In this document: positions 1,688-33,669 of the stretch, in pieces
Layout of the letters: each line of letters opens with the position of its first letter
How positions within the stretch are numbered: the first letter of the stretch is position 1
Source of the DNA: Shigella phage SHSML-52-1
Sequence record: KX130865
DNA: 64,000 nucleotides
Reading direction: 5' to 3' (one strand)
The notes under the pieces: model-generated
The model's database searches: none
What the model was told of the DNA's origin: nothing
The model's input: the letters and a program-made list of their open reading frames with translations, nothing else
Position numbers and translations under genes: made by a program

Positions 1688-2251
1688 ATGAACTTATTCG
1701 ATGATGACGTCCAACTTAACGAGCACCAAATCGCATGGAAGTCTAATGACGCTGATGCGATTCAAAAATGTGCTGACATGTTTAAAGAAAAACCTGAGAA
1801 TGAATTCTTTAAAATCATTAATGCTATTAATGAAAAGAAATCTATATCAATTGCTCAGGTCGACTACTCAAAATTTATGGTTGAGAACTCATTATCCCAG
1901 TTCCCGGAATGTATGCCAGCTGTTTACATGATGAACTTAGTAGGTTCTGAATTAAGTGATGAAGCGCACTTCAACTATATGATGGCGGCAATTCCGCGTG
2001 GTCGTCGATTCTCTAAATGGGCTAAACTAGTCGAAGACACCTCAGAGTTACTAGTTATCAAACTGTTGATGAAACATTACACAATCAACATGAATGATGC
2101 TACCGAGTATAAGCGGCTCCTTGAAAAAAATAACAAGTTGCCAATAGTCCTTAAAGAACTGAAGGCCATGGTCACTGATGAGTTTCTCAAAGAAGTTACA
2201 AAAAATGTGAAAGAACAAAAACAATTTAAAAAATTAGCATTGGAATGGTAA
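1688..2251 (+). CDS. 62: clamp loader small subunit gp62
   Basis: 187 aa ORF immediately after 44, start 1 nt after the 44 stop; size and position match T4 gene 62. Confidence 0.8.
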
Positions 2252-2253
2252 AA

Positions 2254-2622
2254 ATGATCGAAATTAAATTGAAGAACCCCGAAGATTTTCTTAAAGTCAA
2301 AGAGACTCTAACCCGTATGGGCATCGCTAATAACAAGGATAAAGTTCTTTATCAGTCCTGTCATATCCTCCAAAAGCAAGGTAAATACTACATCGTCCAC
2401 TTTAAAGAAATGCTGCGTATGGACGGACGTCAGGTTGATATTGATGGTGAAGACTATCAGCGACGTGATTCGATTGCTCAGTTGCTTGAAGACTGGGGCT
2501 TGATTGTTATTGAAGACTCTGCTCGTGAAGATCTGTTTGGCCTGACTAATAACTTCCGTGTCATCTCTTTTAAACAGAAAGATGACTGGACTTTGAAAGC
2601 AAAATATACAATTGGTAATTAA
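2254..2622 (+). CDS. regA: translational repressor RegA
   Basis: Matches recalled T4 RegA (…LTRMGIANNKDKVLYQSCHILQK…FKEMLRMDGRQV…); track ORF starts 2245 but ATG 2254 follows the 62 stop and gives the T4-like N-terminus MIEI. Confidence 0.8.
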   Translation: MIEIKLKNPEDFLKVKETLTRMGIANNKDKVLYQSCHILQKQGKYYIVHFKEMLRMDGRQVDIDGEDYQRRDSIAQLLEDWGLIVIEDSAREDLFGLTNNFRVISFKQKDDWTLKAKYTIGN

Positions 2623-2626
2623 AGCA

Positions 2627-2644
2627 ATGGGACTTCGGTCCCAT
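2627..2644 (+). terminator. GC hairpin with UUCG loop (GGGACTTCGGTCCC) between regA and 43
   Basis: Perfect stem with stable tetraloop; not followed by a clean U-run, so may be a partial terminator or part of the gene 43 translational operator. Confidence 0.45.
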
Positions 2645-2703
2645 TTGGAGTATAATAAGTTCATCAACAAACAAAAGACAATAACTCGTCTAAAGGAAAT
2701 TAA

Positions 2704-5415
2704 ATGAAAGAATTTTACTTAACGGTTGAACAGATTGGTGATTCAATTTTTGAACGTTACATCGATTCTAATGGCCGTGAACGTACTCGAGAAGTAGAAT
2801 ATAAACCATCACTGTTTGCTCATTGTCCAGAAAGTCAGGCTACGAAATATTTCGATATCTACGGTAAGCCGTGTACTCGTAAGTTGTTCGCTAATATGCG
2901 TGATGCTTCCCAATGGATTAAACGTATGGAAGATATCGGACTTGAAGCACTTGGCATGGACGATTTCAAATTGGCGTATTTGTCTGACACTTATAACTAT
3001 GAAATCAAATACGACCATACAAAAATTCGTGTGGCTAACTTCGACATCGAAGTAACATCTCCGGACGGGTTCCCTGAGCCGTCACAAGCAAAACATCCGA
3101 TTGATGCTATCACCCATTATGACTCAATTGACGACAGGTTCTACGTATTTGATCTATTGAATTCTCCATATGGTAATGTAGAAGAATGGTCTATCGAAAT
3201 TGCGGCTAAGCTTCAAGAACAAGGTGGTGATGAAGTTCCATCTGAAATTATCGATAAAATCATTTATATGCCGTTCGATAACGAAAAAGAATTGTTGATG
3301 GAATATCTCAACTTCTGGCAACAGAAAACTCCTGTCATTTTGACTGGATGGAACGTTGAGTCATTTGATATTCCATATGTGTATAACCGAATCAAGAATA
3401 TTTTTGGCGAATCTACTGCGAAACGTTTATCGCCACATCGTAAAACTCGTGTTAAAGTTATCGAAAACATGTATGGTTCTCGTGAAATCATTACATTGTT
3501 CGGTATATCTGTTCTTGATTACATTGACCTTTACAAAAAATTCTCTTTTACCAATCAACCGTCGTATTCTCTGGATTACATTTCAGAATTTGAATTGAAC
3601 GTTGGTAAACTGAAATATGACGGCCCTATTTCTAAGCTTCGTGAAAGCAATCACCAACGATATATTTCTTATAACATTATCGACGTGTATCGTGTATTGC
3701 AAATTGATGCTAAACGCCAGTTCATTAACTTGAGCTTGGACATGGGTTATTATGCTAAGATACAGATTCAATCTGTGTTTAGCCCAATTAAAACATGGGA
3801 TGCTATTATTTTTAATAGCCTTAAAGAGCAGAACAAGGTGATTCCGCAAGGTCGTTCTCACCCGGTTCAACCTTATCCTGGCGCTTTTGTTAAGGAACCT
3901 ATTCCAAATCGATACAAATATGTAATGAGTTTCGACCTTACATCTCTGTATCCAAGTATTATTCGCCAAGTGAATATTAGCCCGGAAACAATAGCAGGAA
4001 CGTTTAAAGTAGCTCCACTGCATGATTATATTAACGCAATCGCTGATCGTCCTTCAGATGTGTACAGTTGCTCTCCTAACGGCATGATGTATTATAAAGA
4101 CCGTGATGGTGTAGTTCCAACTGAAATCACTAAGGTCTTTAATCAGCGTAAAGAACATAAAGGTTACATGCTTGCAGCTCAACGTAATGGTGAAATAATT
4201 AAAGAGGCATTGCATAATCCTAATCTTTCTGTTGATGAACCATTAGATGTTGATTATCGTTTCGACTTCACTGATGAGATTAAAGAAAAGATTAAAAAGT
4301 TGTCTGCTAAATCTCTTAATGAAATGTTGTTTAGAGCTCAACGTACTGAAGTTGCAGGTATGACTGCACAAATTAACCGTAAATTGCTTATCAACTCACT
4401 TTATGGTGCACTTGGAAACGTTTGGTTCCGTTATTACGATTTGCGTAATGCAACTGCAATCACAACATTTGGTCAAATGGCTTTACAGTGGATTGAACGT
4501 AAAGTTAATGAATACCTGAATGAAGTTTGTGGTACAGAAGGCGAAGCTTTCGTTCTTTATGGTGATACAGACTCTATTTACGTATCTGCTGATAAAATTA
4601 TCGATAAGGTTGGTGAATCTAAATTCCGTGATACCAACCATTGGGTAGACTTCTTAGATAAGTTCGCTCGTGAACGTATGGAACCTGCTATTGATAGAGG
4701 TTTCCGTGAAATGTGTGAATACATGAACAATAAACAACACTTAATGTTCATGGACCGAGAAGCTATCGCTGGTCCTCCGCTCGGTTCTAAAGGTATTGGT
4801 GGATTCTGGACTGGTAAGAAACGTTATGCATTAAACGTGTGGGATATGGAAGGTACTCGTTACGCTGAGCCTAAACTCAAAATCATGGGTCTCGAAACAC
4901 AGAAATCTTCGACCCCTAAAGCAGTACAGAAAGCTCTTAAAGAATGTATTCGTCGTATGCTTCAAGAAGGTGAAGAATCATTACAAGAATATTTTAAAGA
5001 GTTTGAAAAAGAATTCCGTCAATTGAATTATATTAGCATCGCGTCGGTATCTTCTGCGAATAACATTGCTAAATATGACGTTGGTGGATTCCCTGGTCCT
5101 AAATGTCCGTTCCATATTCGTGGAATTCTGACGTATAACCGGGCTATCAAAGGTAATATTGATGCTCCACAAGTTGTAGAAGGTGAAAAAGTATATGTTC
5201 TGCCTTTACGTGAAGGAAACCCATTCGGTGATAAATGTATCGCATGGCCTTCTGGCACTGAAATCACAGATTTAATTAAAGACGACGTACTTCATTGGAT
5301 GGACTACACTGTTCTCCTTGAGAAGACATTTATTAAACCACTTGAAGGATTCACATCAGCAGCGAAACTCGATTACGAGAAGAAAGCATCTCTGTTCGAT
5401 ATGTTCGATTTTTGA
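2704..5415 (+). CDS. 43: family B DNA polymerase gp43
   Basis: 903 aa; exonuclease motifs (FDIEV, YNIIDV), polymerase motifs (SLYPSII, YGDTDS); N-terminus matches the RB69-type polymerase as recalled. Confidence 0.97.
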   Translation: MKEFYLTVEQIGDSIFERYIDSNGRERTREVEYKPSLFAHCPESQATKYFDIYGKPCTRKLFANMRDASQWIKRMEDIGLEALGMDDFKLAYLSDTYNYEIKYDHTKIRVANFDIEVTSPDGFPEPSQAKHPIDAITHYDSIDDRFYVFDLLNSPYGNVEEWSIEIAAKLQEQGGDEVPSEIIDKIIYMPFDNEKELLMEYLNFWQQKTPVILTGWNVESFDIPYVYNRIKNIFGESTAKRLSPHRKTRVKVIENMYGSREIITLFGISVLDYIDLYKKFSFTNQPSYSLDYISEFELNVGKLKYDGPISKLRESNHQRYISYNIIDVYRVLQIDAKRQFINLSLDMGYYAKIQIQSVFSPIKTWDAIIFNSLKEQNKVIPQGRSHPVQPYPGAFVKEPIPNRYKYVMSFDLTSLYPSIIRQVNISPETIAGTFKVAPLHDYINAIADRPSDVYSCSPNGMMYYKDRDGVVPTEITKVFNQRKEHKGYMLAAQRNGEIIKEALHNPNLSVDEPLDVDYRFDFTDEIKEKIKKLSAKSLNEMLFRAQRTEVAGMTAQINRKLLINSLYGALGNVWFRYYDLRNATAITTFGQMALQWIERKVNEYLNEVCGTEGEAFVLYGDTDSIYVSADKIIDKVGESKFRDTNHWVDFLDKFARERMEPAIDRGFREMCEYMNNKQHLMFMDREAIAGPPLGSKGIGGFWTGKKRYALNVWDMEGTRYAEPKLKIMGLETQKSSTPKAVQKALKECIRRMLQEGEESLQEYFKEFEKEFRQLNYISIASVSSANNIAKYDVGGFPGPKCPFHIRGILTYNRAIKGNIDAPQVVEGEKVYVLPLREGNPFGDKCIAWPSGTEITDLIKDDVLHWMDYTVLLEKTFIKPLEGFTSAAKLDYEKKASLFDMFDF

Positions 5416-5455
5416 TATAATGCCAAGAACGGTAAACTAATTAAATGAGAGAAAT

Positions 5456-6091
5456 ATGAAAACTACACCAATCACTATCGCTATTGACGCAATCGTAAAA
5501 CAAGCTTCATCTCTTGCCACTATGGCTAAAGTAATTAGTCAAAACCCTGCCCGATATAATGCTATTCTTGAAACTCTTCGTCGCCCTGGACTGAGTAATT
5601 ATGAAAGCCGAGTAATTATTACAGGTGTTGGTAAGAATGCTAATATTGCAACTAAAGCTTCTGAGACATTTGCTTCACTAGGTATTCCTAGCATGTATTT
5701 GAACACTGGGCATTATTCTCATGGTGACGCAGGATTTATTGCACCTAATGATGTATTAGTTCACATCAGTCGTTCCGGTAAGACTGAAGAAATGATAGGT
5801 GTTGCTAAACATCTTCGTATGATTCGTCCTCAGGTTAAACAGATTCTGTTACATTGTAACCCTGACATTCCACAAGAATACGAAGCTCTTTTTGATTATA
5901 CGTTCTGTACCGGTATCGCGGTAGAAGTTGACGAGAACTCTTTAGCTCCGACCATGTCTACTACATTGTTGTTAGCGCTTATCGATACGTTCGCTATCAA
6001 CCTTTCATCTGAACGTGGATTTACCTCTAATGATTTCCTTAAGTTCCATCCAGGCGGTGCACTAGGTGCCATGTTACGAGGCGAACAATGA
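5456..6091 (+). CDS. SIS-domain sugar-phosphate isomerase (arabinose-5-phosphate isomerase / KpsF-GutQ-like)
   Basis: 211 aa; SIS signatures VGKNANIA, SRSGKTEE and C-terminal FHPGGALG typical of KdsD/GutQ-type isomerases. Confidence 0.7.
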   Translation: MKTTPITIAIDAIVKQASSLATMAKVISQNPARYNAILETLRRPGLSNYESRVIITGVGKNANIATKASETFASLGIPSMYLNTGHYSHGDAGFIAPNDVLVHISRSGKTEEMIGVAKHLRMIRPQVKQILLHCNPDIPQEYEALFDYTFCTGIAVEVDENSLAPTMSTTLLLALIDTFAINLSSERGFTSNDFLKFHPGGALGAMLRGEQ

Positions 6092-6231
6092 AAGCAATAA
6101 CAATAGGACTTTTACTATTGATGCTTGCCATGACTATCTACTGGAGCTTAACGGCTCCAGTAATGATTCCAACACTTGTAATTGGATGGATTATGATTGG
6201 TCTACAGGCAAAGTATGAATGCTTTAACTAG
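6088..6231 (+). CDS. small hydrophobic protein (47 aa), translationally coupled to the SIS gene
   Basis: ATGA overlap with the SIS stop; two predicted TM segments; not in ORF track (below 60 aa). Confidence 0.25.
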   Translation: MKAITIGLLLLMLAMTIYWSLTAPVMIPTLVIGWIMIGLQAKYECFN

Positions 6232-6244
6232 AATAGTGTACAAT
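6218..6244 (+). promoter_or_regulatory. putative middle promoter (MotA-box AATGCTTTA 6218-6226, -10 TACAAT 6239-6244)
   Basis: Box to -10 spacing 12 bp, about 30 nt upstream of the 6273 ATG. Confidence 0.4.
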
Positions 6245-6272
6245 ACACCTACTTACCAATGAGGACTTCAAC

Positions 6273-7961
6273 ATGAAAAAAGCTGTTATTCTTGGTGCTG
6301 GATTAGCAACTCGTTTATATCCAATTACTCACCATATTCCTAAGGTGCTTGTTAACTATAAACAAGACACTATTCTGAGCAATTTGTATACAATTTATTC
6401 TGACCTTGGCGCAGATGAAATTATTGTAGTAGTTCATTCAAAATTTGCTGAAACTGTTCGAGCTTATTGTGAGCAAGAAGGGTTCAATGTGACTATTCGT
6501 ACAGTTGATGAAGCGTATGGTTCTGCTTATGCTCTTGCTAAATTACACAAAGATTTAGACGGCCATAACGTAATTGTTAACTGGTGTGATATTATTCCTG
6601 ATTTTGGTTCATGGTCTTGGAATGTTAACGCAATCTATGTTAAGGGTGATGAATGTCGATATAATTTCGATGGTGAAAATATCACTAACGTAGGTTCAAC
6701 TGGTGGTAATGTTGTAGGAATTTATCAGTTCAAAGACTGGGAATTCTATATGGGTTCTACTGATGAGGAAATTCATGAATACTGCAAAGGACGTGATTTC
6801 GTAGAATTCCTTTACAGCGGCGCATTCAATAAATCAGAGCTTATGAATATCATCGACCTTGGTGATATGCCTAAACTTGAAAAAGCTCATGAAGTTCGTG
6901 AACTTAATCGTAGTTTTAATGCAGTTGAAATTGGTGAAGAAACGGTAACAAAGATTGCTTTAACAGAACAGGGCGTTGCACTTCAAAAAGATGAAGTCAA
7001 TTGGTATAAGAAAGTTAAATCAGATTCAGTTCCACGGATTGTAAGTTATCATCCTGGCGGCCACTTTATTATGGAACGCATTAAAGGTAAGCCGGCATTT
7101 GAATATATTAAATCCAAATCAAGTCTTGCTCGTCCACAAATTGTTGATGCAATTTTAGATGCACTGAAATTCAGCACAGACACTTATTTTGTAAGTCCTG
7201 AAACTGTTCGCCGTGATTTCACTAAAGAGTTCTATACGAAAGTTATTGATCGTTGTGAAAGCATTCAGCCATTGATTGATTCATTTGGTAAAATCACACA
7301 CGTGAACTACACTAAGATTGGACGTCTGAAGCCAATGTTGAAACAAGCTTTAGAACATCTTATTCGTTATCATAACCGTTCTCAGGGACAGTACTCTGTT
7401 ATTCACGGCGACCCAAACTTCAGTAATACTATGATTACTGATAACGGCGAAGTCAAGTTTATCGACCCTCGTGGATATTTTGGTGAAACCAAGATTTACG
7501 GGCCAAAATTGTACGATGAAGCTAAAGTGCTTTATGCTGTTTCAGGTTATGATGAATTCAATGCTAATCCGACCTGGGGACAGTTTACTATTGATGAAAC
7601 AACTTGTAATGTGACTATTAACATCAATCCATTAGTTTACAAATATGGAAAGATGAGTTCGTTTAACGAGTATCATCATTTGGCTGTAGCAATTATCTGG
7701 ATTGCATTAGGTGGTTATTTCAAGAATAATCCACTTAAAGCGGTAGCCGCCTATTATAAAGGTATGGAACTTCTGACTAAGCAATTACGTAACATGGGCC
7801 GTGTACTTCAAGATGGCTCTATTAGTTATGACGTAGCAGAACCTGTAACGGCTACTCTGATTACAAAAAATCCTGGTAAATGGGTGCTAACTGATAAAGA
7901 AACTGGTGTTTCCTATCGTCCAATCGGCGGCGATATCACTCATCAATGGGAACGAATCTAA
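6273..7961 (+). CDS. bifunctional sugar-1-phosphate nucleotidyltransferase (N-terminal, RmlA-like) / APH-type kinase (C-terminal)
   Basis: 562 aa; N-terminus ILGAGLATRLYPIT resembles RmlA GGSGTRLYPLT; C-terminal HGDPNFSNTMI…FIDPRGYFG resembles the HGDxxxxN / D-x-x-G motifs of APH/choline-kinase-fold kinases. Confidence 0.7.
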   Translation: MKKAVILGAGLATRLYPITHHIPKVLVNYKQDTILSNLYTIYSDLGADEIIVVVHSKFAETVRAYCEQEGFNVTIRTVDEAYGSAYALAKLHKDLDGHNVIVNWCDIIPDFGSWSWNVNAIYVKGDECRYNFDGENITNVGSTGGNVVGIYQFKDWEFYMGSTDEEIHEYCKGRDFVEFLYSGAFNKSELMNIIDLGDMPKLEKAHEVRELNRSFNAVEIGEETVTKIALTEQGVALQKDEVNWYKKVKSDSVPRIVSYHPGGHFIMERIKGKPAFEYIKSKSSLARPQIVDAILDALKFSTDTYFVSPETVRRDFTKEFYTKVIDRCESIQPLIDSFGKITHVNYTKIGRLKPMLKQALEHLIRYHNRSQGQYSVIHGDPNFSNTMITDNGEVKFIDPRGYFGETKIYGPKLYDEAKVLYAVSGYDEFNANPTWGQFTIDETTCNVTININPLVYKYGKMSSFNEYHHLAVAIIWIALGGYFKNNPLKAVAAYYKGMELLTKQLRNMGRVLQDGSISYDVAEPVTATLITKNPGKWVLTDKETGVSYRPIGGDITHQWERI

Positions 7962-8347
7962 TGCACCGTGTAGAAAACATGCTTAATCTTTGTTTTGATG
8001 TCGATGATTGTATAACAGAGTGGAATAACAATCGTGATTACGTGAACTTCAAACCAGATGTCGAAATGGTGTCTGCCATTAATGCCCTGTACGATGCAGG
8101 GCATACCATAACGCTTTACACTGCCCGTGGTATGAAGTCGGTAGGTCCTGGTCGTATAGCAATTGACATTCTCCCAAGTCTGATTCAGAACTTGGAAAAC
8201 ATTGGTTTGAAGTACCATAATTTGCTAACACATAAACCAGTATATGATTGGATTATCGACGACAAAGCTATGCGTCCTGACGAATTCAAAGCTCTTATGA
8301 ATAAAGGCGAATTCGAAACATTTAAATCATATAAACCAAATCTATAA
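7961..8347 (+). CDS. HAD-superfamily phosphatase-like protein
   Basis: N-terminal FDVDDCIT (DxDx[T/V] HAD motif I); track start 7946 but ATG 7961 abuts the upstream stop. Confidence 0.55.
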   Translation: MHRVENMLNLCFDVDDCITEWNNNRDYVNFKPDVEMVSAINALYDAGHTITLYTARGMKSVGPGRIAIDILPSLIQNLENIGLKYHNLLTHKPVYDWIIDDKAMRPDEFKALMNKGEFETFKSYKPNL

Positions 8348-8404
8348 TAATTTAAGTAAGACCTGCAAAAACCATCGCATCAATTAACGCGAGATGCAAA
8401 AAAA

Positions 8405-9565
8405 ATGAATACTTTTAAAATCGGAACGAATTTTGATTTAGCTCTTCTTGATAAAATCGTAGAGCTCAATAAAACCTATCCTAATAGCTTGATAAACGAA
8501 GTATATGGCTCTACAAGAGAAATGGCTTTTGTAGCAGCCAGACCTGATTTTAGGCTTCCTGACGTTGACAAAAAGATGTTAGAAGACTACGTTAAACGTT
8601 GTAACGAATTAGGTATTTGCTTTAACTATACACTCAACACGATAAATCCTGGTTCAAAAAGAGAACTAGTTGAGTGGAAGAAGAAAGCTATTCAGGATTA
8701 TGTTCAGTATCTTTGGTCAATAGGCGTATGGCGTATTACTATCGCTAACCCTGTTGTTATGGAAATTGTTCGTGAAGTCAATAAAGATATTGAGATTGAA
8801 GTTTCAACAATTCTACATGTTGATGCTGTAACTCAAATCAAATACTTACATGACCAATATAACATCAAAAAGGTCTGTTGCGGAATTCATAAGAACCGTT
8901 CAGTTTCTTTCCTGAAGCGTGCAGCAGAGTTTTGCAATAAGAACAATATAATATTTGAAGTTCTTGTAAATGAGTTCTGTTCTAATGCTGGTAAAGGGTA
9001 TACAACACATTGTAGTTATCGTGACTCTTGCTATATTTTCCATAGTACTGATGTTACCGCTGATGATGCTAAATCCTTAAATGGATATCCTATGCAGCAC
9101 TGTATTAAAGCTCGTGATACAGACCCATTTAACTGGTTGAGAACTCGTTTTGTTCGTCCTCAAGATTTGAAACTTTATAATGATATTGGTATCACTCAAT
9201 TCAAAGTTTCAGGACGTACAGGTAGCACAGACTACATTTTGAAAGTTCTTGAAGCATACGCTTCTGAAAAGTTTGAAGGTAATTTGTTAGAACTGTGGAA
9301 GCCTTTAGAGACTATTTTCACTCTTGAAAATGAGACTGAGTTTTCACATACAGTAAATATTGAAACCTCTTTGTTAGATGGCTTTTTAGAAAAAAGGTGG
9401 TTCAGACATCCAGATTTTGATTGTGCTAATGAAATCTGTGGGTCAACGTGTACATATTGTGAAAGGTATTATAAACGTCAATTATCTAAAAACGGGTTAG
9501 CAGAAAACTCCATATCTATTATTGATATAACTAACTCTGATGACGCTTTGAGGTACCCGGAATGA
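8405..9565 (+). CDS. hypothetical Cys-rich protein in the modification block
   Basis: 386 aa; Cys clusters (CSNAGKGYTTHCSYRDSC; CANEICGSTCTYC) suggest metal or Fe-S binding; U32-like fold considered but signature not matched. Confidence 0.6.
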   Translation: MNTFKIGTNFDLALLDKIVELNKTYPNSLINEVYGSTREMAFVAARPDFRLPDVDKKMLEDYVKRCNELGICFNYTLNTINPGSKRELVEWKKKAIQDYVQYLWSIGVWRITIANPVVMEIVREVNKDIEIEVSTILHVDAVTQIKYLHDQYNIKKVCCGIHKNRSVSFLKRAAEFCNKNNIIFEVLVNEFCSNAGKGYTTHCSYRDSCYIFHSTDVTADDAKSLNGYPMQHCIKARDTDPFNWLRTRFVRPQDLKLYNDIGITQFKVSGRTGSTDYILKVLEAYASEKFEGNLLELWKPLETIFTLENETEFSHTVNIETSLLDGFLEKRWFRHPDFDCANEICGSTCTYCERYYKRQLSKNGLAENSISIIDITNSDDALRYPE

Positions 9566-9801
9566 TTTCTAGAAAAAGTTTTAATTATAAACTTAACGAA
9601 GAGATTTTGACTATGAAACTGAACACTAACGAACAAATTCTTAAAAAGGCCCTTATGGGCCTGTTTGAAACCAAAGCGGCTAAAGTGATTAAAGAACCTG
9701 TTCAATTGGAATACTACACTGATGCATTCCTTCATAGTGTTCTTGGAAGTATAGATTCTGAAGCTTTACGTTATATCAACATTGTCAAGAAATTCAAATA
9801 A
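9562..9801 (+). CDS. hypothetical protein (79 aa)
   Basis: Track ORF overlapping the upstream stop; contains a terminator-like hairpin at 9648-9661, so coding status is uncertain. Confidence 0.3.
   Translation: MISRKSFNYKLNEEILTMKLNTNEQILKKALMGLFETKAAKVIKEPVQLEYYTDAFLHSVLGSIDSEALRYINIVKKFK
9648..9661 (+). terminator. hairpin GGCCC-TTAT-GGGCC followed by TGTTTG
   Basis: Perfect 5-bp GC stem inside ORF 9562-9801; possible attenuator after the modification-gene block. Confidence 0.3.
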
Positions 9802-9824
9802 GCTTTACGAATTGAGTATATAAT
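9800..9824 (+). promoter_or_regulatory. putative middle promoter for gene 42 (AAGCTTTA 9800-9807, -10 TATAAT 9819-9824)
   Basis: MotA-box-like element plus consensus -10 about 20 nt upstream of the 9844 ATG. Confidence 0.4.
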
Positions 9825-9843
9825 AAATTGTATTGAGGTAAAC

Positions 9844-10560
9844 ATGGGAAAACATAACACAATGAAATATATCAAAGCCGCAGATTTTCAAGCCGCATTT
9901 AAAGCAGTCAATCGTGAAATTTTAGAAAACCCTGAATTCGTAACTGATTCTCGTATTGGACGTTGTAATGAAATTGGGTCTATGACAGTAGTTGTTGACA
10001 CTCCATCATCATTCAAAATGACCGACCCACGTATTAACCGCATCTCTTATGAATACGCCGAAGACTTCTGGAAGTTTATGATTTCTGGTGGTACCAACGC
10101 AGAAGAAGCGTTTAAGGCATATCCTAATGTCGCTAAATTTATTTCTAAACCAAAATCAGATGTTTTGCCGGCGAACTTCAACACTTTCTATGGTCCTCGC
10201 ATTGCGGCCCAATTACCAACTCTTCTAAAAGAACTTAAAGAAAAACCTAACTCTCGAAGAGTTGTGTTCCAAATTCTAGAAAGTTCTGATCAGGCTTTGC
10301 TTGATTCGGACGAAACACTTGAATATCCATGTACTGACTCAGTGACTTATTATATTCGTGATGGTAAGCTTTATACCCACTGCCATATGCGTTCTCAGAA
10401 CTGTGCTGTTGTTATGCAGTTGGATTTTTATCTCCAAGGAAAATTACTTCATTATATCGCTAACGAATGCGGTGTAGAAGTTGGTGATTATACTCATACC
10501 ATGGTAAGTGCCCATGTGTTTGAACGTGATTTTGATTATGTTAAAGGATTCCTTGACTAA
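9844..10560 (+). CDS. 42: dCMP hydroxymethylase gp42 (thymidylate-synthase fold)
   Basis: 238 aa; PNSRRVVF and CTDSVTYYIRDGKLYTHCHMRSQN match the TS/dCMP-HMase active-site region (catalytic Cys). Confidence 0.85.
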   Translation: MGKHNTMKYIKAADFQAAFKAVNREILENPEFVTDSRIGRCNEIGSMTVVVDTPSSFKMTDPRINRISYEYAEDFWKFMISGGTNAEEAFKAYPNVAKFISKPKSDVLPANFNTFYGPRIAAQLPTLLKELKEKPNSRRVVFQILESSDQALLDSDETLEYPCTDSVTYYIRDGKLYTHCHMRSQNCAVVMQLDFYLQGKLLHYIANECGVEVGDYTHTMVSAHVFERDFDYVKGFLD

Positions 10561-11459
10561 TGGCTATTTTCCGCGTACCAATCTTGAGTATGCGGTCTTA
10601 TGAAACTGGACAGTATGCTATCCTTAAGGATGGCAACTTCCAACTTCATTTGCACCGTGCTAATCCAGGTGATGTGATTACATATCCACGTAATGCATCT
10701 GATATTAAAGAATGTGAACGTCTTTTCCCGGAATTTAAGTTTGTTCCATTATGGTATAAAGATAACGCGTATAACACTCGTAAATATTTCTGGTCTGAAA
10801 ATGAATTTGTGGTTGATTCATTAATTGCTTATTATGATTGTGATTTTCTAATAACAGATATCACTGGATATGACGGCGCTTTTGATGTAGAATTCAATTT
10901 CAATATCACGGCAGACCCTAATAAACCACGTTTTTATATTGACGAATTCTTAAAAACCGATATGTTGTCAGTTAATCGTTCACTTCAAACTACTGTGTTG
11001 AATGAACGTCAAAAGGAAGTGCTGGTTAAAGCCGGTGCAGATGGTAATAAGATTATCGTAACGCAGAAAGTTATACGTCCTTCCATCATGCAGCGTCTTG
11101 TAGGTGATTTGACTCCTATTCATGTAGATGGTATTTTTCATCCATTTCGAATTAGTGATCCGTGTTATCATTTTGAACAAGTGGTTGAATGTGCAATTCA
11201 ATTAGGTCAACCACTTTATATAACCGATCCAAATAATAGCTTCGACAGAAATAAGTATCCTGAAGAAGCGCTGATTCGAATTTTTAAACCAACTAAAACT
11301 GAGTACTATCAAATTCTTAAAGGACGCCCGAAGATTCAATATTTCGAAAATCCTGAAGAAGTATTCCATCCAGGTCTTGGTGAGTTCATCTACTTTAATG
11401 CTTTAATTTCTTCGCCGTATAATATACCTAAATACGAAGATGTCGTAATCGAGGAATAA
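10560..11459 (+). CDS. hypothetical protein at the T4 beta-glucosyltransferase position; candidate hmC-DNA glycosyltransferase
   Basis: 299 aa, TAATG-coupled to gene 42; no family recognised by eye; function inferred from synteny only. Confidence 0.45.
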   Translation: MAIFRVPILSMRSYETGQYAILKDGNFQLHLHRANPGDVITYPRNASDIKECERLFPEFKFVPLWYKDNAYNTRKYFWSENEFVVDSLIAYYDCDFLITDITGYDGAFDVEFNFNITADPNKPRFYIDEFLKTDMLSVNRSLQTTVLNERQKEVLVKAGADGNKIIVTQKVIRPSIMQRLVGDLTPIHVDGIFHPFRISDPCYHFEQVVECAIQLGQPLYITDPNNSFDRNKYPEEALIRIFKPTKTEYYQILKGRPKIQYFENPEEVFHPGLGEFIYFNALISSPYNIPKYEDVVIEE

Positions 11460-11460
11460 A

Positions 11461-12009
11461 ATGGCTAAAATTATTTTAGTAGATGGCCCGGATAATGCCG
11501 GTAAAACAACTTTCATTAATGACATAATGGAAATTAGTGAAAGATATGTAAAGATTGATTTCCCTAAACGAACAGTTGATGGACGTTTCGATGTTAAGTC
11601 TCGAAATGAAGTTGGTTGTTTCGAAACGATGTTGAATTATTTAGACCCTACTAAGATTTATCTGTTAGACCGTGGATATATTAGTAACTGGGTTTATGGA
11701 CGTATTCGACAAGATGCGGACTCTGTTCTTGATGTTTATGAGCAGGATTATGTTCGTCTTTGTCAAAACCATGATGTGTTCACAATTATTTTAACACGTA
11801 ACGAAATGACTGAAAGTTTTGAAGACGACCTTATTACTTTGTCTTCATTCGGTTTTAATACAGTCATTTCACATTTTGAAGAGTTTGCAATTCATAACAA
11901 AATCCAAACATATCAATTACTTAATCATGATGGTGCTAACAAAGTTATAGGATTTAATGCAAGCGAACGTAATAATTTGATTACAGAAATCATTAAATGG
12001 GCTCGTTAA
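11461..12009 (+). CDS. P-loop kinase (thymidylate/deoxynucleoside-kinase-like)
   Basis: 182 aa; Walker A VDGPDNAGKTT and LLDRGY motif resembling the TMK/dNK DRx motif. Confidence 0.55.
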   Translation: MAKIILVDGPDNAGKTTFINDIMEISERYVKIDFPKRTVDGRFDVKSRNEVGCFETMLNYLDPTKIYLLDRGYISNWVYGRIRQDADSVLDVYEQDYVRLCQNHDVFTIILTRNEMTESFEDDLITLSSFGFNTVISHFEEFAIHNKIQTYQLLNHDGANKVIGFNASERNNLITEIIKWAR

Positions 12010-12107
12010 GAGCCATTTAAAGTTTTAAATGCTGTATAACTCTTAGTATATAATCATCTTATCTTTTAAACATGAGTAAAATATAATGATGCCTATGGAA
12101 AAATACA

Positions 12108-13280
12108 ATGTCTGATTTAAAATCTCGTCTGATTAAAGCTTCTACTTCTAAAATGACTGCAGACTTGACTAAGTCTAAGCTGTTTAATAATCGCGATGAA
12201 GTCCCTACTCGTATTCCGATGTTGAATATTGCATTAGGTGGTGCACTGAATGCCGGGTTGCAATCAGGCTTAACTATTTTTGCTGCTCCTTCTAAACACT
12301 TTAAAACGTTGTTTGGGCTGACCATGGTTGCAGCATATATGAAGAAATATAAAGATGCAATCTGTTTGTTTTATGACTCAGAATTCGGTGCTTCAGAATC
12401 TTATTTTCGTTCAATGGGTGTTGATTTAGACCGTGTAGTTCATACTCCGATTCAATCTGTCGAACAACTTAAAGTTGATATGACTAATCAGCTTGACGCG
12501 ATTGAACGCGGTGATAAAGTTATTATCTTTATCGATTCAATCGGTAATACTGCATCTAAGAAAGAAACCGAAGATGCGTTGAACGAGAAAGTTGTAGGTG
12601 ATATGTCTCGTGCTAAGGCACTTAAATCTCTGTTCCGCATTGTGACTCCTTATCTGACTATTAAAGATATTCCATGTGTTGCAATCAACCATACAGCAAT
12701 GGAAATCGGCGGACTATATCCTAAAGAGATTATGGGTGGTGGTACAGGTATTCTTTATTCTGCCAACACGGTATTTTTTATCTCTAAACGTCAGGTTAAA
12801 GAAGGTACAGAATTGACCGGTTATGACTTCACGTTGAAAGCGGAAAAATCTCGTACAGTTAAAGAGAAATCTACTTTCCCGATCACGGTTAATTTTGATG
12901 GCGGTATTGACCCATTCAGTGGCTTGTTAGAAATGGCAACTGAAATTGGTTTTGTAGTTAAGCCTAAAGCCGGGTGGTATGCTCGTGAATTCCTTGACGA
13001 AGAAACAGGCGAAATGATTCGTGAAGAGAAATCATGGCGTGCTAAAGCTACCGATTGTGTAGAATTCTGGGGACCTTTGTTTAAACATAAGCCTTTCCGA
13101 GATGCAATTGAAACTAAATATAAACTAGGTGCTATCTCTTCTATTAAAGAAGTTGATGACGCTGTTAACGACCTTATTAATTGCAAAGCAACAACTAAAG
13201 TTCCGGTTAAAGCTTCTGATGCTCCGTCTGCAGCAGATATAGAAAACGACCTTGACGAAATGGAAGATTTCGATGAATAA
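12108..13280 (+). CDS. uvsX: UvsX recombinase (RecA-like)
   Basis: 390 aa; N-terminus MSDLKSRLIKASTSK and overall sequence match T4 UvsX; acidic C-terminal tail. Confidence 0.95.
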   Translation: MSDLKSRLIKASTSKMTADLTKSKLFNNRDEVPTRIPMLNIALGGALNAGLQSGLTIFAAPSKHFKTLFGLTMVAAYMKKYKDAICLFYDSEFGASESYFRSMGVDLDRVVHTPIQSVEQLKVDMTNQLDAIERGDKVIIFIDSIGNTASKKETEDALNEKVVGDMSRAKALKSLFRIVTPYLTIKDIPCVAINHTAMEIGGLYPKEIMGGGTGILYSANTVFFISKRQVKEGTELTGYDFTLKAEKSRTVKEKSTFPITVNFDGGIDPFSGLLEMATEIGFVVKPKAGWYAREFLDEETGEMIREEKSWRAKATDCVEFWGPLFKHKPFRDAIETKYKLGAISSIKEVDDAVNDLINCKATTKVPVKASDAPSAADIENDLDEMEDFDE

Positions 13281-32568: not shown

Positions 32569-33669
32569 ATGAAAGTTATGTTTATCCCATCTCGCGCAGT
32601 CCCATTTAACCCAGAACGTGTACAAGGTGGTCTTGAAGCAGTACATTTAAATGTGTTGAAATATTTAGTTTCTATCGGTGCTGATATTGATTATATCGGC
32701 TTTGATAATGACACATTTGGTGATTGGAAGGTTAATCATCATCCTGTTGGTCATCTGACTAAATTCAGTCTAGGTATGAGTTATACTATGGCTCGTAAGA
32801 TTGTTGAACTAGCCGGCATCCATGAATACGATTTTGTTGTTACTATGGAACCGACTAAACTAACCGTTCAGGCAATTAAAGACGCAGGTCTCTCTAAAGT
32901 TCATAAGAATTTTATGGCAACACCATTTGAACCGGTATCTCGTGGCATTGTTCAAATTTGGGACCAGACTATTCAAATTCATAAGAATGGTGGTAAGAGC
33001 TATGCTCCTACTAAAGCCTTCCGTGAATTTGAACGTAAATATTGTTATATGACTTCAGGTCTGACTGACAAAATTGATTATGATTATTGGCGAGCAAATC
33101 CGTTGTTTGAAGCCGAAGATTATCCGGTTATTTGTTTGAATGAGAAACCTGAAGTTCTTCCGGCGACTGATCTGATTATTAGTGCACAACGTTATGACAC
33201 TAAAATGCGTCGTACTGATGTTGCTCTTGAAGCGATTAAAGCACTAGGCGAAAATGGTGTAGGATACTGTCCTAGTAAATGGGCACCACCGGCTAAGTAT
33301 CCTGTTATTATTGATGCTCCACACAGTGAAATCATGGAACGTCTTAAAACAGCTAAAGCACTTATCAATACGTGTCCTGACACGGGTACGGTAGAGAATA
33401 GTTCTATTGAAGCCATCTCTAAAGGTGTCCCTGTGATTCAGTTAGTTTTTAAGGATTATCCGCACGCGACATTCGAATATGACCCAGATACTGTGCGTGT
33501 AGAAATTGATTCCTCTACTCCTAAGAAAGAAGTAGTTGCGCTTTACACAAAAGCTGTATTAGAATTCACTGACACATACGAAGCTCGAGTTAAACGTGCT
33601 GAAGCAGTATGGAAGAAGTATAACCGAGATGCGGTTGTTGCGATGTGGGATAAAATCTTCACAGCGTAA
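32569..33669 (+). CDS. GT-B-fold glycosyltransferase (GT4-like); candidate hmC-DNA sugar transferase
   Basis: 366 aa; C-terminal TGTVENSSIEAISKGVPVIQ resembles the GT4 E-x7-E sugar-donor motif; sits between 39 and rIIA. Confidence 0.6.
   Translation: MKVMFIPSRAVPFNPERVQGGLEAVHLNVLKYLVSIGADIDYIGFDNDTFGDWKVNHHPVGHLTKFSLGMSYTMARKIVELAGIHEYDFVVTMEPTKLTVQAIKDAGLSKVHKNFMATPFEPVSRGIVQIWDQTIQIHKNGGKSYAPTKAFREFERKYCYMTSGLTDKIDYDYWRANPLFEAEDYPVICLNEKPEVLPATDLIISAQRYDTKMRRTDVALEAIKALGENGVGYCPSKWAPPAKYPVIIDAPHSEIMERLKTAKALINTCPDTGTVENSSIEAISKGVPVIQLVFKDYPHATFEYDPDTVRVEIDSSTPKKEVVALYTKAVLEFTDTYEARVKRAEAVWKKYNRDAVVAMWDKIFTA

Follow-up and report, generated by a model that had tools for sequence, protein, structure and literature searches.

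Which enzyme does a T4-like phage encode at the map position of the T4 beta-glucosyltransferase gene (beta-gt), when its product bears no visible resemblance to that protein? This question is raised by an open reading frame (ORF) of 299 amino acids (aa), here called GT1, in the DNA of Shigella phage SHSML-52-1 (sequence record KX130865; the whole stretch of 64,000 nucleotides (nt) that was analysed is referred to as the window). We conclude that GT1 is likely a retaining-type GT-B glycosyltransferase that uses uridine diphosphate-arabinofuranose (UDP-Araf) to place alpha-D-Araf on O5 of 5-hydroxycytosine (5hoC). Two features define the locus:

10556..10562, + strand: stop/start overlap CTAATGG, a putative translational-coupling junction formed by the TAA of a ThyA-like gene and the ATG of GT1
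10560..11459, + strand: GT1, the feature under study, a 299-aa protein of predicted GT-B fold, the proposed base-proximal (first) arabinofuranosyltransferase for 5-hydroxycytosine

The junction reads gacTAATGgct, in which TAA (10558-10560) closes a 238-aa ThyA-like ORF and ATG (10560-10562) opens GT1, and this 1-nt overlap bears out the translational coupling through TAATG that had been claimed in an earlier sequence-only reading of the window. A 182-aa ORF begins at 11461, a single base past the GT1 stop codon. In the window, the genes run 45/44/62, regA, gene 43 (2704..5415), six extra genes, the ThyA-like gene, GT1, a kinase-like gene, uvsX (12108..13280), 40 and 41, while the order in T4 is 43, imm.1, imm, 42, b-gt, segA, uvsX, 40 and 41. 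Because the two orders correspond, the position of GT1 is equivalent to that of T4 beta-gt, as the same reading had stated. It had also seen no similarity between the two proteins, and none was detected here, even with a 65-sequence family profile of GT1 (hhalign probability 0.08%). A promoter and terminator scan of 5300-12300 gave counts at or below the shuffled expectation and nothing usable.

GT1 was found by tblastn in 347 phage records, with a single match spanning at least 80% of the protein in 339 of them, and a large protein collection held 137 homologues. Together with the 26 alignment columns that were invariant across 65 homologues (identity down to 36%), these counts indicate that GT1 is a genuine gene rather than an ORF arisen by chance. 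The window phage is an RB69-like Mosigvirus, and GT1 identity reached 95-99% in about 150 Mosigvirus genomes; the host range of the family covers Escherichia, Shigella, Acinetobacter, Klebsiella, Serratia, Enterobacter, Proteus, Yersinia, Shewanella and Rhizobium phages. An exhaustive hidden Markov model search of 1.84 billion representative proteins returned only 233 family members at E<=0.001. The sequence is identical to YP_009288974.1, a 'hypothetical protein' of Shigella phage SHSML-52-1, and belongs to phrog_3891 ('unknown function'; E=1.4e-155 over residues 1-298). All named members of its 90% cluster (180/180) go by 'hypothetical protein' or, in UniRef, by 'RNA polymerase binding protein', a name that is wrong and for which we found no support, and the GenBank record of phage HY126 leaves the GT1 gene without a product name. 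The RB69 counterpart, ORF047c+046c, is 98% identical to GT1. The RB69 record AY303349 (L001) splits two genes of the cluster by single-base errors, namely ORF047c/046c (6001-6901) and ORF053c/052c (1718-3404) (PMC6024577, PMC13326640); unlike in that old record, GT1 is intact as one ORF in the window and in those 339 records.

Lee et al. (NAR 2026, PMC13326640, Table 1 and text) built models of the RB69 protein gp46:47 and its DLP3 counterpart gp79 and suggested for both the role of 'arabinosyltransferase 1'. Since gp46:47 is 98% identical to GT1, GT1 is not novel: it is already known as a published candidate first-sugar arabinosyltransferase and represents no new kind of enzyme. These two proteins and Thanatos TH1_063 constitute GT1's own family (PHROG 3891), and they have in common the position between the 5-hydroxy-dCMP (5hodCMP) synthase gene and a TMK-like kinase gene. 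TH1_063, which is 48% identical to GT1 (E=7e-86), likewise lies between a ThyA-like and a kinase-like gene. Three attributes of the family were found for GT1, namely homology, a D169N ThyA-like gene upstream and genes for UDP-Araf; its predicted GT-B fold and its best matches 3c4q and 6kih are also those published for arabinosyltransferase 1.

An AlphaFold2 model of GT1, built from the 65-homologue alignment, was obtained at high confidence (mean predicted local distance difference test score 95.5, with no residue below 70; predicted template modelling score 0.90). The model consists of two alternating beta/alpha halves, forming two Rossmann-like beta/alpha/beta domains with an inter-domain cleft as in GT-B enzymes, and the choice between GT-A, GT-B and a non-transferase fold thus falls on GT-B. 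Fold comparison gave scores of 16.7 to BshA, 16.3 to HepE, 15.9 to PimA, 14.3 to the HY126 glycosyltransferase 9iqz and 13.0 to T4 alpha-glucosyltransferase, while T4 beta-glucosyltransferase (beta-GT) was outside the best 60 matches. The best neighbours were retaining GT4/GT5 enzymes, and plant-type inverting UGTs ranked lower. Foldseek with the GT1 model returned MshA (3c4q, E=3e-6, probability 1.00), and in a viral structure library the nearest entries were family members of Acinetobacter phage KARL-1 together with the two RB69 half-ORFs, followed by annotated viral glycosyltransferases. We identified an invariant R197 after the first strand of the C-terminal domain, as well as a conserved K246, H270-P271-G272 and then E275; R197, K246 and H270-P271-G272 appear to be placed where GT4 enzymes have R/K and the EX7E motif. 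Altogether, GT1 appears to be a minimal GT-B-fold glycosyltransferase that is structurally closest to retaining GT4 enzymes, the fold prediction itself being of high confidence.

Sequence comparison gave no such assignment. GT1 matched zero Pfam families at E<=1, nor did its distant relatives P0104, P0142 and TH1_063 match any; precomputed Pfam domains were absent from all 120 homologues listed, an NCBIfam search with GT1 gave nothing meaningful, and PDB sequence searches with GT1 alone and with the 65-sequence profile found no match, the family having no solved structure. The family assignment of GT1 therefore comes from comparison of the predicted fold only. The bacterial retaining GT4 enzymes (sucrose-phosphate synthase 6kih, BshA 6n1x, MshA 3c4q, PimA 2gej) are 7-12% identical to GT1. 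Compared with them, GT1 is 60-100 residues shorter, has no Pfam Glycos_transf_1/4 match at E<=1 and no recognisable EX7E, and their acceptors are small molecules or lipids, in contrast to the nucleobase proposed for GT1. T4 alpha-glucosyltransferase (GT72, a retaining GT-B enzyme, 1y6f) is about 12% identical over the structural alignment and is longer (400 aa versus 299 aa), and both its acceptor and its donor differ from those proposed for GT1. T4 beta-GT (GT63, an inverting GT-B enzyme) resembles GT1 in standing downstream of a ThyA-family gene and upstream of uvsX, in its GT-B architecture, and in decorating the C5 oxygen substituent of cytosine in phage DNA, which for GT1 is in part predicted; however, GT1 lacks the sequence or close structural similarity, and the hydroxymethylcytosine (hmC) acceptor, that would place it in GT63.

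The fold comparison also raised a different reading, in which GT1 would be a GT-B-like UDP-sugar 2-epimerase or another enzyme that tailors the sugar-nucleotide donor. UDP-N-acetylglucosamine (UDP-GlcNAc) 2-epimerases also have GT-B architecture. Many of the best Foldseek matches were such epimerases (1f6d, 4neq, 7vza and 8sxv, E about 3e-6 to 1e-4), and the syntenic gene of Rhizobium phage RL38JI, RL38J1 gp215, matched epimerases first (PMC13326640 Table 1). However, the proposed route to UDP-Araf requires no epimerase, and one transferase is needed per sugar, with GT1 the sole candidate in mono-glycosylating phages; we thus consider an epimerase very improbable. Nucleotidyltransferases were not among the best fold matches of GT1, and no Pfam NTP_transferase match was found.

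The acceptor of a GT1-catalysed transfer is indicated by the gene upstream:

9844..10560, + strand: ThyA-superfamily 5-hydroxy-dCMP synthase, a flavin/O2-dependent hydroxylase (Pfam Thymidylat_synt E=1.9e-15, PDB match, D169N signature)

The ThyA-like protein is near-identical to the HY126 'thymidylate synthase' crystal structures 9iqc/9ir2/9iqu (E=3e-160) and 98% identical to RB69 gp48, but only 25% identical to T4 gp42. It carries HMRSQNCAVVMQLD (RSQN), compared with NMRSNDVVFGFRND (RSND) in T4 gp42. Against the E. coli ThyA motif, which we take to be RSCD169VFLGLPFN177, the window enzyme has Asn at the Asp169 position and Asp at the Asn177 position. RB69 gp48 makes 5-hydroxy-dCMP with flavin and O2, and enzymes of this kind can be recognised by D169N (Lee et al., NAR 2026, PMC13326640). 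The DNA of RB69 contains beta-D-Araf-(1-3)-alpha-D-Araf-O5-deoxycytidine, without the methylene group (PMC13326640), and arabinosyl-5-hydroxycytosine has been confirmed in another Mosigvirus, the earlier 'arabinosyl-hmC' (PMC6024577) being called erroneous (PMC13390438). Given the 5hodCMP-synthase signature and the near-identity to characterised enzymes, the acceptor is not hmC.

The sequence-only reading had identified the upstream ORF as gene 42 and GT1 as a candidate novel hmC-DNA sugar transferase. The 25% identity to T4 gp42, the RSQN motif, the 9iqc match and the 98% identity to RB69 gp48 show instead a 5-hydroxy-dCMP synthase; of the transferase claim, the fold stands, while the acceptor becomes 5-hydroxycytosine and the novelty is gone with the publication of RB69 gp46:47. 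We considered the corresponding alternative, that GT1 is a novel transferase of glucose or another sugar to hmC-DNA that replaces T4 beta-GT. The beta-gt map position and the GT-B fold agree with it, but its acceptor part is already refuted, in that the phages make 5-hydroxycytosine with an upstream D169N enzyme near-identical to proven 5hodCMP synthases (PMC13326640; PMC13390438); moreover, GT1 has no similarity to beta-GT and the cluster encodes arabinose-nucleotide synthesis. The probability left to this alternative is practically negligible.

The donor is indicated by three genes further upstream:

5456..6091, + strand: SIS-domain D-arabinose-5-phosphate isomerase for sugar-precursor supply, RB69 gp55 orthologue (Pfam SIS E=8e-10)
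6273..7961, + strand: bifunctional NTP-transferase and APH-like kinase of 562 aa, AfhE / RB69 gp52:53 orthologue (Pfam NTP_transferase E=1e-9, APH E=4.5e-3)
7946..8347, + strand: HAD-type phosphatase, AfhF / RB69 gp51 orthologue (phrog_1238 E=3e-43; 98% identical to RB69; PMC13326640)

The isomerase is 97% identical to RB69 ORF055c and is annotated likewise in HY126 (PMC13326640). The bifunctional protein is 96% identical to its RB69 counterpart and holds an N-terminal GxGxR-type motif (MKKAVILGAGLATRL); the annotated start of the phosphatase in relatives is the ATG at 7961. In HY126, the orthologues AfhE and AfhF turn arabinose 5-phosphate into UDP-arabinose, as PMC13326640 summarises from He et al. 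2026. These UDP-Araf synthesis genes (5456-8347) are co-located with GT1 in the window and are also present in most T4-like loci. The sugar is D-arabinofuranose, a product of neighbouring genes, and not glucose.

The window encodes one further candidate transferase:

32569..33669, + strand: GT2, a GT-B glycosyltransferase of 366 aa, RB69 gp3 / HY126 9iqz orthologue, the proposed second (beta) arabinosyltransferase (PMC13326640, PMC6024577)

GT2 matches the solved 'phage HY126 glycosyltransferase' structures 9iqz/9ir0 (E=8e-250), and despite the solved structure no Pfam or NCBIfam model was found for it at the thresholds used. The suggestion that the window encodes two transferases, GT1 and the GT-B enzyme at 32569, was borne out by this match together with the predicted GT-B fold of GT1. 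The two proteins show no detectable sequence relationship (hhalign probability 0.6%), and their genes are 21 kb apart, with GT2 between gene 39 and rIIA. Unlike GT1, GT2 has a solved structure and a narrower phyletic range: it was found in only 210 phage records and is confined to Escherichia/Shigella phages, with one copy, and Acinetobacter phages, with two copies that stand in tandem directly after the TMK-like gene. One sugar per base has been reported in Serratia phage LC53 and Thanatos, two in RB69, Bas46 and NP, and three in DLP3 (PMC13326640; bioRxiv 10.64898/2025.12.19.695335; PMC13390438). Given that phages with more transferase genes also carry more sugars per base, and that GT1 is universal, GT1 is taken to be the base-proximal, first-sugar enzyme.

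Based on these results, we propose a pathway of four steps. The coupled upstream ThyA-like flavoenzyme would make 5-hydroxy-dCMP, an activity that others have shown for RB69 gp48, and the isomerase, kinase/uridylyltransferase and HAD phosphatase encoded 2-5 kb upstream would make UDP-arabinofuranose, as others have shown for HY126. GT1 would then use UDP-Araf as the donor to form the ether-linked Araf-O5-cytosine, and GT2 at 32569 would add the second, beta-linked arabinose. The activity, donor, stereochemistry and acceptor of GT1 are the parts that we infer here. The proximal sugar is alpha-linked (PMC13326640), and this linkage would agree with the retaining-type structural neighbours of the GT1 model. 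The name justified by the 2025-2026 literature, the fold and the synteny is 'putative 5-hydroxycytosine alpha-arabinofuranosyltransferase (first sugar)'.

Several observations weigh against this assignment. The canonical EX7E motif of GT4 enzymes is not evident in GT1 by inspection, the second Glu not being recognisable, and the Pfam, NCBIfam and PDB profile searches gave no sequence-level link to curated glycosyltransferase families. The family is acidic, with a median isoelectric point (pI) of 5.2 compared with 9.05 for T4 beta-GT, which is unexpected for a DNA-binding enzyme; pI and net charge are suggestive only as indicators of DNA binding, and we did not treat them as discriminating. The accessible literature contains no transferase activity of any GT1-family member. 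DLP3 gp79 alone gave no arabinosylation of 5hoC DNA with UDP-Araf or UDP-arabinopyranose (PMC13326640, data not shown there), and the individual DLP3 transferases were inactive on 5hoC-containing DNA (PMC13326640). TH1_063 did not glycosylate plain DNA, dCMP or dCTP, all of them substrates without a 5-OH (PMC12838424). The only published activity in the family is the reported synthesis of UDP-xylose by TH1_063, starting from UTP and xylose-1-phosphate (PMC12838424).

The last result suggests that GT1 might be a UDP-pentose pyrophosphorylase, joining UTP and pentose-1-phosphate to UDP-pentose, and not a transferase. UDP-xylose was detected by liquid chromatography-tandem mass spectrometry after incubation of His-tagged TH1_063 with UTP, xylose-1-phosphate and pyrophosphatase (PMC12838424), and TH1_063 is syntenic with GT1 as well as 48% identical to it. 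However, the assay, as far as the accessible account describes it, had only a no-enzyme control, and carry-over of an E. coli uridylyltransferase is in our view possible. A genuine NTP_transferase domain is present in the 562-aa neighbour, whose HY126 orthologue AfhE is credited with UDP-arabinose pyrophosphorylase activity in the account given by PMC13326640, and mono-glycosylating phages without GT2 would be left with no transferase at all. Because the fold is wrong for this chemistry and an NTP_transferase is encoded next door, the pyrophosphorylase activity of TH1_063 is unlikely to be physiological, and we consider this reading of GT1 quite improbable.

A more serious question is whether GT1, acting as an arabinosyltransferase, works on DNA or on a nucleotide. 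It is raised by the gene that follows:

11461..12009, + strand: TMK-like P-loop kinase, RB69 gp45 orthologue, conserved GT1 partner (phrog_761 'thymidylate kinase' E=2e-45)

The TMK-like protein is 44% identical to Thanatos TH1_064, gives no more than a weak signal for dTMP kinase in Pfam and NCBIfam, and no solved structure was found for it. We studied the conservation of the locus in 52 viral GT1 loci (52 found by the family profile, plus two earlier loci, minus two without a full GT1 match). A ThyA-like gene was upstream of GT1, on the same strand and at a measurable distance, in 45 of the 52. The two genes overlapped by 1 or 4 nt in 29 of these 45, were separated by 1-10 nt in 11 and by more than 60 nt in five; the coupling, as an overlap or a gap of at most 10 nt (40/45), persists in homologues that are only 25-40% identical. 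The TMK-like gene was directly downstream of GT1, usually overlapping, in 21 loci, and upstream of it, after a HAD gene, in 10 others.

Domain fusions were also identified among metagenomic proteins. A TMK-like domain is N-terminal to GT1 in P0230 and C-terminal in P0227, P0229, P0233, P0257 and P0259; these extra domains were missed by single-sequence phmmer with the window proteins and were found by PHROG profiles. In the PHROG scan, which covered four of these kinase fusions, the kinase domains of P0230, P0229 and P0259 match phrog_761, the PHROG of the window kinase (E=7e-11 to 1e-7), and the extra segment of P0227 has no match; P0233 and P0257 share an EGFDxIGK motif. In P0138, P0148, P0150 and P0175, a HAD-like domain is N-terminal to GT1. 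This domain of about 185 aa carries the motifs DFDGIF...ITGDS...GDDxYD and is presumably a sugar-phosphate phosphatase joined to the transferase. We rejected the fusions as proof of consecutive catalytic steps, given that HAD-GT1 fusions also occur and fusion partners thus need not catalyse consecutive steps. The synteny and the fusions to kinase and HAD domains all the same tie GT1 to the pathway and speak for its assignment as the arabinosyltransferase.

These arrangements would fit a pre-replicative pathway, in which GT1 arabinosylates 5-hydroxy-dCMP, the TMK-like kinase acts on arabinosyl-5-hydroxy-dCMP, the polymerase incorporates the glycosylated dCTP analogue and later sugars are added on DNA. 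Besides the tight stop/start coupling of the ThyA-like, GT1 and TMK-like genes across distant lineages and the GT1-kinase and kinase-GT1 fusions with PHROG 761 domains, three further points agree with it. The T4-type deoxynucleoside monophosphate kinase of RB69, gp159, converts 5hodCMP to 5hodCDP and together with gp48 is enough for 5hodC in DNA (PMC13326640), and since the window phage likewise has a T4 gp1-type kinase for 5hodCMP, the TMK-like kinase is a second kinase without an obvious substrate. DLP3 gp79 is inactive on 5hoC DNA, and the authors leave the choice between mononucleotide and DNA level undecided (PMC13326640). GT1 itself is acidic (pI 5.2, net charge -10). However, the in vitro results are negative data only, and gene 42 and beta-gt are also adjacent in T4 although beta-GT acts on DNA, so that adjacency proves nothing. 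The pathway would moreover require a nucleoside diphosphate kinase and a polymerase that accept a C5-O-pentosyl nucleotide, and all characterised phage DNA glycosyltransferases known to us act on DNA. We therefore regard the pre-replicative pathway as possible but rather unlikely; if true, it would be, to our knowledge, the first nucleotide-level sugar hypermodification of phage DNA.

On the T4 paradigm of a beta-GT that acts on DNA, we lean, with modest confidence, towards 5hoC in newly replicated DNA as the acceptor of GT1, which would probably work in partnership with the TMK-like P-loop protein encoded next to it. For DLP3, others have shown that gp76 and gp77 together add the third sugar at the DNA level. 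In a milder variant of the partnership, the P-loop protein would be an obligate non-kinase subunit of the transferase, which would explain the inactivity of the isolated enzyme on 5hoC DNA. Whether the first sugar is added at the DNA or the nucleotide level determines how one could reconstitute or inhibit the pathway. Arabinosyl-5hoC DNA shields a large group of T4-like phages against restriction enzymes, Brig1-type glycosylases and type I CRISPR, and it also exposes them to other defences (PMC13216743, PMC13390438); the protected phages include therapeutic candidates against E. coli, Klebsiella and Acinetobacter.

Two other genes precede the ThyA-like gene in the cluster:

8405..9565, + strand: peptidase-U32-family protein of iron-sulphur (Fe-S) type, RB69 gp50 orthologue (Pfam Peptidase_U32 E=7e-11)
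9562..9801, + strand: 79-aa ORF between the U32 and ThyA-like genes, RB69 ORF049c orthologue (phrog_8601, 'unknown function')

Across 22 homologues, ten Cys residues of the U32 protein do not vary, and four of these (C340, C345, C349, C352) form a C-terminal Cx4Cx3Cx2C cluster; homologues are found at L053:8954-10051 and L059:8179-9276 and in L052, L055 and L057 (Thanatos TH1_065). Within 8-kb flanks, most enterobacterial-phage loci and Thanatos carry the U32 gene. It is absent from the Acinetobacter and Pseudomonas phage loci, the hosts of which we take to be aerobes, but one E. coli phage group (L012-16, L021) lacks it too. The U32 proteins RlhA, TrhP and UbiU/V are O2-independent, prephenate-linked hydroxylation factors, whose products are ho5C in rRNA, ho5U in tRNA and hydroxylated quinones (PMC5727448, PMC6599085, PMC6747719, PMC10990095), and Lee et al. 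listed the phage gene only as a 'sugar or heterocycle reductase' (PMC13326640). Given the O2 requirement of the ThyA-like hydroxylase (PMC13326640), the U32 protein could provide 5hoC by an anaerobic route. The 79-aa ORF has 4 nt in common with the end of the U32 gene and occurs in only some related loci, always with U32; by analogy with UbiU/UbiV pairs or ferredoxin-type partners, its product may be a U32 partner.

Kinase, GT1-like and U32 genes also occur together in phages that are not T4-like, namely L053 (IMGVR_UViG_3300035520_000516, 7466-10051), L059 (Logan SRR14597530, 5555-9276), L052 and L055, and no ThyA-like gene was detected in the flanks of these four. L053 encodes a DnaG primase and a PolIII-alpha polymerase. 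L059 carries a fusion of kinase and GT1, with a dCMP deaminase gene directly upstream and a dUTPase/DCD gene nearby. Loci of the L053/L059 type hint that another glycosylated 5-hydroxypyrimidine, perhaps one derived from uracil, is made there by way of U32 instead of a ThyA-type hydroxylase.

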